Below, in pieces: positions 47,576-50,467 of a stretch of DNA of 64,000 bases. A model generated the notes under the pieces. It did not search any database. It was not told where the DNA came from and saw nothing but the letters and a program-made list of their open reading frames with translations. The position numbers were made by a program, and so were the translations under genes. Where the stretch lies: the NCBI GenBank assembly GCA_046160485.1, contig JBJXGV010000001.1, positions 1,479 through 65,478 of the forward strand. Direction: 5' to 3'. This DNA comes from a bacterium. Its GTDB lineage: Bacteria; Orphanbacterota; Orphanbacteria; JBJXGV01. Each line of letters opens with the position of its first letter. Within the stretch, counting starts at the first letter, position 1.

Positions 47576-50467
47576 CTACGGCCCGCAGCCGCCGCAGGTT
47601 CGGTAGACCTGGATGTTGTCGAAGTAACACGCCGACGTACTCCTGGAGTACATCCCGATGCTCCCCGCGGCGATGTCGGAGTCGTAGACGGTCGTGCCGG
47701 AGCCGCCGGTCACCCATGTAATCGGAACGCCATCGACCCAGCACCGGAACTCGTTCCCGACCGCTGTAATTTTCAAAATGTGATTAAAGCTGTCGAATGT
47801 CGTCACGCCGCTGGCCCATGCGATGTCGGTCGTCGTGCCGCCGACTTTCTTCGTGAAAACAGCCTCGTCCAACGCCGGGTAGACGCGAAGCACGTAGTAG
47901 TTGTTGCTATCGACGTAGCGCGTGCAGATGCCGCCGCGGCGGTTCGAGTTCGTTCCCGCCATGTTCACGCTGCCCTGCACCGTCATGTTGGCCGTGCTCG
48001 CCAGACCGTTCGGCCGCGCTTGCGCGACCGCGGTACCGGTCGTCTTCAAGCGGTTCGTCGAAATCGACCAGCTTCCGCCCTGAGCCGTCCAGTTCGTCGG
48101 AATCGAGCCGTTCGGATCGTCCTGGAAGTCCTCCGAGAAAATCAGATTGCAGGGCTCGATGACGAAACCGCACGTCGCGCCGCCCGTGAGCAGATCGACC
48201 GCGATCGAGTCGTTGAGCGACGACCCGTTGAAATCGAGTTGGATGTGGAGCGGGCTGTCGTAGGTCGCGCTCGTGCTGAGCACCCAGTCGTTTACGTCGA
48301 CCTCGACGGGAGAAAGCGGCGGCGTCATCGCGCCGTCGCCGCCGGAGGAACCGTCCGCGTCCCAAACCTCCACGCCGCCCGCGAAGACGCGCACGAGCCG
48401 CTGCCCGGAACTCCACGCCAGACTCATCCCCTCGACGGTGATGTCCGCGCCGTCGCCGTTGAAGATGTCGCCGTGCGCCGAGATGTTCGAGGCGCCGTTC
48501 GCGTACTCGGCGATGCAGGCGTTGCGCACGATGCACGGTATACACGTCGGCATCTCCGACACCATGATCGAAAGCGGGCTCACGTTCGGCGGCGTGCACT
48601 GGTCGTACGTCGCAACCGAGATGTAATACGTGTCGCACGGATCGAGCCCGGTCAGACTCGCGGTCGAGATCGAGCTATCGACGATCGCCGCGGAGAAATC
48701 GATCGCCACGGGCGACGCGCCTTCGATCGCATCGACACCGTTGAACGGCGGGCCCGGGGTCTTGTCGTAGTAGATCAGGTATCCCGCGATGTCGCAGTCG
48801 TTGCTGGTCGGAAAGACGATGTCAATGCGCGCGTCGCCGGAACTCGTCGACACGTAAGACGGCATCGTCGGAATCGCCGCGTCGCACGGCGTCGTGGTCC
48901 ACGCGATCTTCTGGTTCTCAGCGCAGACGTTTCCCTTGTTCCCGCAGTCGTCGACTGCGATCACGTTGACGAAGTACGTCGTACAAGTCGCGAGGCTCGT
49001 GAGAATTCCGCTCGACGTTCCGCCGCCGGCGACCCAAAGCGTGTCGGTGAGAGCGCCCGACGTGGTGCCGTAGACGATGTCGAAGCCGGCGATATCGCTG
49101 ACGGCAAGCGGCGAGCCGTCGCTTCGAAACGATGGCGGCGTCCAGCCGACGGTGACTTCGCCGAAGCCCGGGCCGTCGACGGCCCACGCGTTCGCGACAC
49201 ACGCCGGTGCGGCGGGAGTCGTGGCCAGCATGTCCGCCGTCGGGACCCCCTCGGTGCCGCACGCGACCGCTTCGATCCGGTAGTAGAACGTGCCGCACGA
49301 CGCACCCAACACGTCGACGTACGTCGTGTCGGTGATCTCGGACGCGATGCGGTTCGCAGGGATCGGGGTCGCGGATGGCGTCGTCGCGCGGTAGACGTTG
49401 TACGCCACCGCCGAGGTGATCGTCCCGCCGCCGACGTCGGTGTTGATCTGCCCCCATGTCAGCGTGACCGCGGAGCCGACCGTCGACGCTCCGATGATCG
49501 CGGGCGCGACCGGTTGCGCGGCGCCGCCGGGAGATGCCGTCTCGAGACACACCTCGCTCTCGACGTCGGAGGTCGCGACGCACGTGACCATGATCATGTA
49601 CGTCGTCGACGCGTCGAGGTCGCCCACCGTCCACTCGTTGACGATGCGCGCCACGCGCGTATCGAGCCGCAGGTCGTCCCAGGTCGTGCCGTAGTAGATA
49701 TTGAAATGGCTGATGTCTTTGAATTTCAGCGTCGAGCCGTCCGTGTATTGCGTCGGCGTGACCCAACCGATCGTGATCGATTCGCAGTTCGGGCTCGATA
49801 CGCCGGTTGATGTCGGCGGGTTTGGCTTCGCGCGCGACGGCGTGAACGGTAGGTTGCGCGGAAACACGGTCGTCGTGAACGTGACGCCTTGATAACCCGC
49901 GCCTTCGATTTCAGTCGGCGTTTCCGACGTCACCGCGACCTCGACTTCGCTGATGGCGTCCGGCGAAAGGATCGGGAACACGAGCGTGTCGCCGTCGCGG
50001 TCGTAGTAACGGAACGCGAGTCCGTCTTCGGCGATACCGTACGAGAGCGGTCCTTCCATCACGACGGTGCCGTCGACGTCGTAGACGACCTTGCGCAAGA
50101 GGCGATCCGTCGGGTTGACCGTGCCGGAGTCGAGATCGGCGCCGAGAAAGAGCGTAATCGTCTCCGCGCCGTCGATGGAATCGTAGACGTCCGCGGTGAA
50201 CGCAATCGAATCCTCTCCCGCGAACGTGACCGACGCTTGTGTCGCGTCTTTCCCGTAGCTTGCGTGGCGAATGTCCGCCGCGACCGCCTCGAGGCCGAGC
50301 CGCGCGTTGCTCTGCGCCTCGAGCAGCGAGCGCTCGCTATAGAAACTCTTCTGCGTCCGAAGAAAGAGCTGGTACACGACGCCGAACGCGACCGCGAGAA
50401 GTGCGAGCGTCACCATCACCTCGACGAGCGTGAACCCGCGTCTTCCATGTTGATGTTGTCTGGTCAT
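47576..50467 (-). CDS. Giant PilW-like type IV pseudopilin fused to four FN3-like modules and a C-terminal LamG/DUF1080-like jelly-roll
   Basis: The in-frame ATG at 50467 gives MTRQHQHGRRGFTLVEVMVTLALLAVAFGVVYQLF, a prepilin cleavage/methylation motif. The first ~190 aa are PilW-like. Four repeats follow, e.g. ITIGWVTPTQYTDGS...FNIYYG...STTYMIMVTCV. The C-terminus reads FSEDFQDD...GGICTRYVDSNNYYVLRV...FDNIQVY. Confidence 0.75.
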   Translation of the reverse strand: MTRQHQHGRRGFTLVEVMVTLALLAVAFGVVYQLFLRTQKSFYSERSLLEAQSNARLGLEAVAADIRHASYGKDATQASVTFAGEDSIAFTADVYDSIDGAETITLFLGADLDSGTVNPTDRLLRKVVYDVDGTVVMEGPLSYGIAEDGLAFRYYDRDGDTLVFPILSPDAISEVEVAVTSETPTEIEGAGYQGVTFTTTVFPRNLPFTPSRAKPNPPTSTGVSSPNCESITIGWVTPTQYTDGSTLKFKDISHFNIYYGTTWDDLRLDTRVARIVNEWTVGDLDASTTYMIMVTCVATSDVESEVCLETASPGGAAQPVAPAIIGASTVGSAVTLTWGQINTDVGGGTITSAVAYNVYRATTPSATPIPANRIASEITDTTYVDVLGASCGTFYYRIEAVACGTEGVPTADMLATTPAAPACVANAWAVDGPGFGEVTVGWTPPSFRSDGSPLAVSDIAGFDIVYGTTSGALTDTLWVAGGGTSSGILTSLATCTTYFVNVIAVDDCGNKGNVCAENQKIAWTTTPCDAAIPTMPSYVSTSSGDARIDIVFPTSNDCDIAGYLIYYDKTPGPPFNGVDAIEGASPVAIDFSAAIVDSSISTASLTGLDPCDTYYISVATYDQCTPPNVSPLSIMVSEMPTCIPCIVRNACIAEYANGASNISAHGDIFNGDGADITVEGMSLAWSSGQRLVRVFAGGVEVWDADGSSGGDGAMTPPLSPVEVDVNDWVLSTSATYDSPLHIQLDFNGSSLNDSIAVDLLTGGATCGFVIEPCNLIFSEDFQDDPNGSIPTNWTAQGGSWSISTNRLKTTGTAVAQARPNGLASTANMTVQGSVNMAGTNSNRRGGICTRYVDSNNYYVLRVYPALDEAVFTKKVGGTTTDIAWASGVTTFDSFNHILKITAVGNEFRCWVDGVPITWVTGGSGTTVYDSDIAAGSIGMYSRSTSACYFDNIQVYRTCGGCGP

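Follow-up and report, generated by a model that had tools for sequence, protein, structure and literature searches.

The 64,000-nucleotide window analyzed here (positions 1,479 to 65,478 of contig JBJXGV010000001.1 in the bacterial assembly GCA_046160485.1; coordinates below count from the first nucleotide of the window) carries on its minus strand a gene for a modular minor pilin of 963 aa, referred to below as the giant. The gene occupies 47576..50467 (-), with its stop codon at 47576-47578, and stands between three further genes of a minor pilin cassette and the pilMNOPQ genes. The mechanical open reading frame (ORF) in the ORF list runs from 47576 to 50752 (-) and would encode 1058 aa. ATG 50467 is a credible start codon because the Shine-Dalgarno-like run GGAAGGGGG lies 8-16 nt 5' of it, the neighboring GspH-like gene on its 5' side stops at 50518, and a prepilin leader follows directly. 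An initial annotation of this DNA had given the coordinates 47576-50467 and a length of 963 aa (stop excluded), in exact agreement with our ORF and start analysis. The minus-strand frame is taken as coding since GC content is 0.82 at third codon positions (GC3) compared to 0.53 at second positions (GC2), and codon-position GC is uniform along the ORF. Two plus-strand ORFs, one of 766 aa antisense to the giant (47510..49810) and one of 925 aa antisense to a Big_1 gene described below (39481..42258), were rejected as genes; both are Arg-rich shadows of the high-GC coding strand.

Among 5.8 billion proteins searched, 22 others proved to be full-length relatives of the giant, 942-984 aa long and 30-87% identical, from independent NCBI, JGI, ENA and Logan assemblies. 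Several are named as proteins of Candidatus Eisenbacteria metagenome-assembled genomes (MAGs). The resulting family alignment of 23 sequences spans the proteins over their full length; its mean column identity is 54%, and 13 cysteines are invariant. Compared pairwise, the sequences have a mean identity of 0.51 in the pilin module, 0.72 in the following linker, which is the most conserved stretch of the protein, 0.55 in the first fibronectin type III (FN3) domain and 0.35 in the two distal domains, a gradient that fits a putative conserved carrier with a faster-evolving effector end. In a scan of one genome per GTDB species, the giant was present at 41 loci, nearly all of them from Candidatus Eisenbacteria/Eiseniibacteriota and one of them on a complete 6.45-Mb chromosome. 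The survey of similar-length homologues that the initial annotation had proposed thus places the protein phylum-wide in Eisenbacteria. When the gene was read in 15 of these loci, 12 copies were intact (937-976 aa) and all ended in the same jelly-roll motif; with that motif at the end of 12/12 intact genes, swapping of the C-terminal effector among Eisenbacteria was rejected. The remaining loci, L047 (JAXLXQ010000006.1), L016 and L033, have a giant frame that is broken or N-terminally truncated, with pieces of 428, 767 and 885 aa, which may reflect sequencing frameshifts or pseudogenes.

The distribution of the family bears on whether the giant is an artefact, either of chimeric assembly or of a frameshift that fused a small pilin gene to a gene for FN3 and lectin domains. 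Apart from the broken frame of one related MAG locus, L047, nothing speaks for this. The same end-to-end architecture recurs in all 23 proteins, which come from four independent sources of assemblies, and in 41 species-representative genomes, the complete chromosome included, and there is no break in codon-position GC along the ORF. An artefact is therefore barely conceivable: because conserved full-length relatives and loci occur in independent genomes, sequence comparison leads us to treat a chimera or frameshift fusion as excluded and the locus as one gene.

The protein begins with a class-III leader peptide, MTRQHQHGRRG (residues 1-11; 50435..50467 (-)), which is followed by FTLVEVMV. Gly11 occupies position -1, Phe12 position +1 and Glu16 position +5, and cleavage is predicted before Phe12. 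The leader is matched by Pfam N_methyl PF07963 (E 9.4e-8) and by TIGR02532 (E 6.9e-7), which bears out the class-III signal of the initial annotation. With a basic leader, Gly at -1, a hydrophobic residue at +1, Glu at +5 and a hydrophobic alpha1N, the giant belongs to the type IV pilin superfamily. Residues 12-205 (49853..50434 (-)) form the pilin module, a long alpha1 helix (residues 14-67) followed by beta-sheets in the AlphaFold2 (AF2) model. Sequence and profile searches of this module against PDB sequences yielded only alpha1N matches to major pilins and were uninformative on pilin class, and Foldseek searches with the full-length model were dominated by FN3 tandems; residues 1-212 were therefore modeled separately. 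This model has a predicted local distance difference test score (pLDDT) of 85 and a predicted TM-score of 0.73. Its 13 best Foldseek matches in the PDB are all XcpW (5vtm, 6utu, 5bw0, 3nje), EpsJ (3cfi, 2ret) or GspJ (3ci0), at E 1.8e-4 to 1.7e-2, with seven at E <= 0.001 and a probability of up to 1.00. No other pilin class occurs among these 13, and the next matches are unrelated proteins at E > 0.04.

The genes around the giant lead to the same class. Directly 5' of it and on the same strand lie, from nearest to farthest, a GspH/FimU-like minor pilin of 168 aa (H; 50518..51024 (-); N_methyl and GspH, the latter at E 0.0016, with ComGD, XpsH and GspH models), a PilX_N-domain protein of 522 aa at the K position (51021..52589 (-); PilX_N E 3e-4) and a PilV-like minor pilin of 162 aa (I; 52616..53104 (-); TIGR02523 PilV E 7e-10), the last two with start codons that we chose. 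These three proteins and the giant are the only pilin-like products in the 64 kb, which hold three class-III motifs and the PilX_N protein. The gene order PilV-like, PilX_N (500-560 aa), GspH-like, giant (I-K-H-J) is kept in every related locus with flanks. Wherever flanks are available, it recurs across the 41 species-representative genomes; it persists down to 32% identity of the giant and also appears in loci that were reached through the PilX-like protein. The giant thus shares its cassette with minor pilins of the H, I and K types, the context of a J-class subunit.

With the module profile as query, an exhaustive HMM search retrieved 799 cluster representatives at E <= 1e-10. The top ten are the giant's own family and fragments of it; below them come many stand-alone pilins of 190-240 aa that match over the whole module at E 1e-15 to 1e-20, as well as other giants of 880-1500 aa. 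One relative of 207 aa carries PF27121 PpdB in precomputed annotation and is the third gene of a GspH-like/129-aa/207-aa cassette, the J position of an H-I-J series. Because the fold prediction, the exclusion of the other subunit types within the cassette and the cassette positions of homologues all point the same way, we assign the module to the GspJ/PilW class. The PilW-like N-terminus of the initial annotation is upheld by the match to the XcpW/EpsJ/GspJ fold in a cassette whose other members are the I-, K- and H-type subunits.

Among the larger relatives of the module is a 1030-aa protein from another lineage (P0168; locus L050, 3270-6362, GCA_046754105.1), in which the pilin module is joined to Big_2 and an FG-GAP beta-propeller. 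It occupies the J position of a cassette in which N_methyl proteins of 160 and 172 aa precede it and a 690-aa protein follows. The module is shared with further proteins of 880-1500 aa that bear fn3 or Big_7 domains (P0165, P0199, P0231, P0245 and P0265). Judging by these relatives, giant modular pilins at the J position are not limited to Eisenbacteria.

Beyond the pilin module, the full-length AF2 model, built on the 23-sequence alignment, has a mean pLDDT of 82. The module passes into a linker (residues 206-216; 49820..49852 (-)) that is the tail of an invariant motif, P203-R-N-L-P207 to P210. The motif PRNLPFTP, from residue 203 on (residues 203-216 correspond to 49820-49861 (-)), is invariant in 23/23 homologues, and pLDDT falls below 50 at residues 206-211. 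A linker that is invariant yet modeled with low confidence bears the signature of a partner-docking segment and may have a docking role.

Four FN3 domains follow. FN3 domain 1 (residues 217-312; 49532..49819 (-)), the most conserved of them, is matched by Pfam fn3 PF00041 at E 1.2e-9. Domain 2 (residues 318-417; 49217..49516 (-)) has invariant C391 and C403 and matches the Fn3-like PDB entry 3mpc at E 0.0027. Domain 3 (residues 420-526; 48890..49210 (-)) has invariant C495 and C508 and is related by hhalign to FN3 domain 1 (E 6e-15) and domain 4 (E 9e-17). Domain 4 (residues 533-640; 48548..48871 (-)) has an inserted loop, invariant C558, C611 and C624, and a weak match to the FN3-like Pfam family Pur_ac_phosph_N. 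All four were delimited with AF2, Foldseek and hhalign. The top Foldseek matches of the whole model are four-domain FN3 tandems (E 1e-17 to 1e-14) such as LAR FN1-4 (6tpw, E 1.7e-17) and fibronectin 7-10. Pfam fn3 matches occur in 22/23 family members, and the four modules are mutually related at the profile level (hhalign E 1.4e-3 to 9e-17). The four FN3 domains first proposed from repeat patterns are therefore real by each of these comparisons.

The next segment, residues 641-771 (48155..48547 (-)), had been described as a Cys-rich spacer. That description does not hold: in the AF2 model it is a folded beta-sandwich of about 130 aa with four invariant cysteines (C642, C645, C651 and C766) as well as invariant W702 and G706. 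The domain is left unassigned, with no Pfam family and no PDB sequence or profile match, and a kinship with FN3 or carbohydrate-binding modules (CBMs) was rejected when hhalign showed no relation to either set of profiles. A profile of the distal domain (A3) used as a homologue-search query returned 3 matches only.

The protein ends in a concanavalin-like jelly roll of the CBM66/DUF1080 type (residues 772-958; 47594..48154 (-)), recognized by the family profile against the PDB and by Pfam in relatives. A profile of residues 640-963 aligns over about 155 residues with the CBM66 of Bacillus subtilis levanase SacC (4azz, 4b1l and 4b1m; E 4.6e-25 to 7.3e-25). Behind these come 4jqt, a "putative glycosyl hydrolase" (DUF1080) at E 4.6e-9, and neurexin/laminin LNS/LamG domains. 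PF06439 is found in 12/23 family members (best E 2.4e-11) and Laminin_G_3 in 9/23. DUF1080 and CBM66 are two names for one domain (PMC5673643). The concanavalin-type fold that had been suggested for the C-terminus is thus well founded. The ligand of CBM66 is the terminal fructose of levan (PMC8715580); at this sequence distance, fructan specificity should not be transferred to the module of the giant. C773 and C958 are each present in 14/23 sequences, and the C-terminal tail reads TCGGCGP or TCGCGG(xxP) in 14/23, the tails of the other members being unrelated. Because C773, C958 and the Cys-containing tail each occur in 14/23 sequences, the two cysteines probably form a local, clade-specific disulfide that ties the jelly roll together at its first and last strands (window ~47585-48151).

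The assembly platform lies immediately 3' of the giant in the window as pilMNOPQ (42693..47456 (-)). It comprises pilM (46380-47456), pilN (45776-46375) and pilO (45030-45761), identified from their translations and from Pfam matches of the same genes in syntenic loci, and, identified in the same way, the pilQ secretin gene (42693-44021) and a pilP-like gene (44024-45040), the latter also by a PilP match. These are genes of a type IVa pilus (T4aP), and they directly follow the giant only in the window's own clade. The PilP-like protein has a long acidic low-complexity region rich in Ala, Asp, Glu and Ser ahead of a weak PilP domain (E 0.0015, residues 299-354 of 371).

The leader with Glu at +5, the GspJ-like fold and the conserved I/K/H cassette beside pilMNOPQ are our grounds for placing the giant in a T4aP as a J-type subunit. 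We think it reasonably probable that it is a J-type core minor pilin with an extracellular arm of ~750 residues that presents a lectin-type module. In this model the leader would be cleaved, and the giant would pair with the PilV-like (I) and PilX-like (K) subunits in an H-I-J-K complex that would prime assembly of the pilus and then stay at its tip. The tip and priming step is modeled on what is established for the GspI-J-K complex (PDB 3ci0) and for T4aP minor pilins (PMC7541494; PMC13533445). The conserved PRNLP linker would lead the chain out of the complex into a disulfide-rich FN3 stalk of ~15 nm, or >20 nm with the two distal domains, an estimate that assumes ~3.5-4 nm per domain. The terminal CBM66-type module would be held beyond the tip and bind carbohydrate, with a polysaccharide substrate, the cell's own extracellular polysaccharide or the surface glycan of another cell as candidate ligands, and extension and retraction of the pilus would become glycan-specific attachment. 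PilY1 would not be needed, the enlarged 522-aa PilX_N protein probably completing its own beta-sheet in cis.

Several observations weigh against this model. The J assignment depends on structure prediction and gene context because neither Pfam PilW/T2SSJ nor NCBIfam GspJ/PilW matches the giant at E <= 0.1, the only matches being in the leader region. TM-scores in the Foldseek comparison are moderate (0.4-0.55; 0.27-0.55 on the target for the 13 best matches). The jelly roll of the giant itself scores 13.9 bits against PF06439, below the curated cut-off of 26.8. Among the models named in the initial annotation, therefore, N_methyl and fn3 are found, PilW is not, and DUF1080 is found at the level of the family with the giant alone below threshold. 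PF06439 also includes enzymes (3-keto-disaccharide hydrolases), and for a module assigned by sequence a lectin function is hence not guaranteed.

This last point raises the possibility that the C-terminal DUF1080/PF06439 module is catalytic, resembling a 3-keto-disaccharide hydrolase or a glycosidase, and that the pilus displays an enzyme and carries it to polysaccharide. Besides the enzymes for which PF06439 is named, a glycosidase role has been suggested for DUF1080 proteins (PMC5673643), some modular pilins have a predicted peptidase module (PMC8179133), and the second-best PDB match is the putative glycosyl hydrolase 4jqt. The CBM66 of SacC, however, which is non-catalytic, ranks first with an E-value 16 orders of magnitude lower; the matches that come after 4jqt are to LNS/LamG binding domains, and the far end of a long stalk is where binding modules are typically found. 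We regard a catalytic module as unlikely.

A further difficulty for the presentation of a lectin on a pilus is that no major pilin, PilB, PilC or PilT gene was detected in the window, either among Pfam-scanned genes or by motif scan, and for this reason a functioning pilus is assumed from related loci. In those loci, two 142-aa pilins lie beside an ABC transporter, and a prepilin peptidase is present in one locus. The corresponding region of the window, 5' of the cassette, holds genes for an ABC ATPase, an ABC-2 permease, a 360-aa protein without assignment, a PAS histidine kinase and a sigma-54 response regulator (53320-59466 (-)), an arrangement that resembles the pilGHI/pilSR neighborhood of Myxococcus pil clusters. 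Two relatives, L007 and L053, have the 142-aa pilins ahead of the ABC genes; the window has pyruvate:ferredoxin oxidoreductase genes there, on the other strand, and its major pilin is therefore taken to lie elsewhere. Near the cassette there is no match to the sigma-54 promoter consensus, and the two matches in the window are no more than chance would give.

These gaps would also suit a giant that never reaches an external pilus and belongs to a membrane-anchored or short endopilus, for instance as part of a piston like that of the type II secretion system (T2SS), as a primer or plug, or as a periplasmic or outer-surface tether. GspJ-type folds are common to T2SS pseudopili, the window holds neither a major pilin nor an ATPase gene, and a cargo of 100 kDa would have to pass the secretin. 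Against this, the machinery is of the T4aP type (PilM_2/PilN/PilO/PilP and a secretin), and related loci have two 142-aa pilins and a prepilin peptidase near the cassette. PilY1 proteins of similar mass pass secretins (PMC7541494; PMC13533445), and FN3 and CBM modules, like the many conserved cysteines, are usual in proteins outside the cell. An envelope-bound giant seems to us improbable, and we retain the T4aP tip as its more plausible site.

The remaining point concerns PilY1. Neither the operon nor the other window genes scanned by Pfam include a PilY1-like gene, a negative result that applies to the window and not to the whole genome. The giant itself has neither a propeller nor a PilY1 Pfam match and is thus not a PilC/PilY1 adhesin, and the same is true of the other scanned window genes. 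The absence of PilY1 from the operon, which the initial annotation had pointed out, therefore stands; taken alone, it is no proof that the giant takes the place of PilY1, and a K subunit with a cis strand probably explains it better by analogy with published systems (PMC13533445). As shown by Ellison et al., PilC/PilY1 proteins hand PilK/PilX a beta-strand formed by their last ~10 residues and thereby license pilus assembly, and systems without PilY1 (T2SS GspK, Tad CpaL, and the Thermus and Vibrio competence pili) provide the strand in cis, often after a large insertion in K (PMC13533445).

The PilX_N protein of the cassette has at least 140 relatives at 46-89% identity, with 59% mean column identity, and is much more conserved than the giant. 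Its mature N-terminus has no Glu at +5, as in GspK, and its C-terminus is nearly invariant (PPPCFPVPLNLWKDVxWTE). At 522 aa it exceeds a typical PilX by ~300 residues. Apart from PilX_N, Pfam recognizes no domain in it, and its family profile had no match in the PDB. The lack of Glu at +5, the larger size, the high conservation and the near-invariant C-terminus make it fit the cis-strand type of K subunit, and PPPCFPVPLNLWKDVxWTE is a candidate for the cis beta-strand that would complete a PilK-type subunit. By this analogy, the enlarged PilX_N protein is probably a better explanation than the giant for the lack of PilY1.

A strict PilY1 surrogate, in which the distal or C-terminal part of the giant or its PRNLP linker would dock on the PilX-like protein and license assembly through a trans beta-strand, is the least favored of the functional alternatives, and we consider it quite improbable. 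The cassette does lack PilY1, the linker is invariant yet of low confidence, as docking motifs often are, and licensing by a trans C-terminal strand is established for PilC/PilY1 and predicted for MshQ (PMC13533445). The C-terminal tail of the giant, however, is not conserved (Cys-type tails in 14/23), the co-occurrence of C773 and C958 in 14/23 suggests a local disulfide and not a docking strand, the PilX-like protein has a very conserved C-terminus of its own, and systems without PilY1 usually complete PilK in cis. A broader form of the tip-adhesin model would have the phylum-wide adhesin, borne by J and neither by PilY1 nor by the apical K subunit, also license assembly, with the PRNLPFTP linker or the distal domains docking on the PilX-like protein to give a tip of two giants (J and K) that couples adhesion to priming and in which PilY1 is dispensable; we hold this to be a long shot.

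In a sister clade, a secreted FG-GAP/VCBS-like protein of the beta-propeller type (~458 aa; L001, 5933-7309) is encoded between the sigma-54 regulator and the PilV-like gene (L001, L007, L008, L010, L011, L016 and L023). In that clade alone it may serve as an accessory tip protein. As a universal partner or PilY1 analogue it was rejected: tblastn did not find it in the window, and both the closer relative L053 and most other loci lack it.

Another large protein adjoins the pil genes. A 1018-aa Big_1/Invasin_D3 protein with six repeats (39625-42681 (-)) starts 12 nt after pilQ and has a lipoprotein-like N-terminus (...VVWAGCSD...). Its pairing with pilQ is kept in the window's clade (L001, L007-L011, L016, L023, L052 and L053), and it may be a secretin-associated protein or a second surface adhesin. 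Elsewhere in the window, three paralogous genes for GDSL/SGNH hydrolase and AlgX-like proteins (7222-8685, 9896-11143 and 11181-12491 (-)), with an aminotransferase gene between the paralogues on the opposite strand, may have polysaccharide O-acetylation or esterase functions. The other Pfam-scanned genes of the window are housekeeping genes.

If the function proposed for the giant is correct, a J-type core minor pilin carries a folded cargo of ~80 kDa through a secretin, and a complete H-I-J-K T4aP could present a lectin without PilY1. The combination of an enlarged K subunit with the lack of PilY1 offers a natural test case for the model of licensing by beta-strand addition. The giant is also a candidate attachment determinant conserved phylum-wide in the uncultured Eisenbacteria, for which, to our knowledge, no surface biology has been described; a full-text search for work on Eisenbacteria pili found no paper, its single match being incidental. 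The terminal CBM66-like module is a tractable target, as it can be expressed separately and screened on glycan arrays.

Pilins with appended domains are an established group. Raynaud et al. (2021) cataloged >1,200 modular pilins in 264 architectures, with FN3 (IPR003961) and the PF13385 lectin among the 15 commonest modules, and defined a modular pilin as a pilin module joined to one or more domains not specific to type IV pilus biology (PMC8179133). The giant is one by that definition, with a pilin module (residues 1-205), four FN3 domains, a beta-sandwich and a CBM66-like domain. The initial annotation had been unaware of any characterization of this architecture. Minor pilins with a built-in adhesin are not a new concept (PMC8179133; PMC9934059), although this particular instance is uncharacterized.

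The closest functional parallel is PilC of Streptococcus sanguinis, a pilin with Ig-like and concanavalin A-like lectin modules that binds host glycans and is stabilized by the GspI-like PilA (Shahin et al. 2023; PMC9934059). Both proteins have an N-terminal pilin, Ig-type domains, a terminal concanavalin A-like lectin, a GspI-like partner gene and a proposed location at the tip. S. sanguinis PilC has a mass of ~53 kDa, a single Ig-like module, a galectin-like lectin and a pilin moiety that is unusually short, and it serves a monoderm pilus without a secretin. The giant, in contrast, has a mass of ~100 kDa and combines a complete GspJ-like module with four FN3 domains, a further beta-sandwich and a CBM66-type module, in a diderm T4aP with a complete H-I-J-K set. 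Homology between the two sequences was not detected beyond the fold superfamily. CofB and TcpB of type IVb pili also have a pilin domain followed by beta-repeat and lectin-like beta-sandwich domains and are located at the tip, but they are homotrimers from systems with a single minor pilin and not subunits of an H-I-J-K complex (PMC8179133; PMC13533445).

The components of the giant have their own counterparts. The CBM66 of SacC (4azz, 4b1l and 4b1m) and PF06439 share the jelly-roll fold of its terminal module; in SacC the domain is appended to a GH32 enzyme and binds the terminal fructose of levan, whereas here it is appended to a pilin. GspJ/XcpW/EpsJ of the T2SS and PilW of T4aP share with the giant a leader with Glu at +5, a fold of long alpha1 and beta-sheet, and H, I and K partner genes. 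They are proteins of ~200-275 aa; they lack appended domains, and their gene order is H-I-J-K compared to I-K-H-J in the cassette described here. PilC/PilY1 tip adhesins resemble the giant as large and variable effectors, often with lectin or vWA domains, and in the proposed adhesion at the tip. PilY1 is not a pilin and is held by a C-terminal beta-propeller and a strand given to PilK/PilX, whereas the giant has no propeller and is attached through its own pilin helix. The PilX_N protein is likened to Tad CpaL, Thermus ComZ and T2SS GspK, which are likewise large proteins at the K position without Glu at +5 and without PilY1 in the cassette (PMC13533445), and from these PilY1-less K subunits we infer that it may complete its strand in cis.

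The general principle of modular pilins is thus already published, and the giant is a new and extreme instance of it and not a new concept. What sets it apart is the use of a J-type core minor pilin as the carrier, an arm of six domains and ~750 residues that ends in a CBM66-type module and is fixed across a phylum, and a cassette that lacks PilY1 and supplies a K subunit of enlarged size as the giant's partner.

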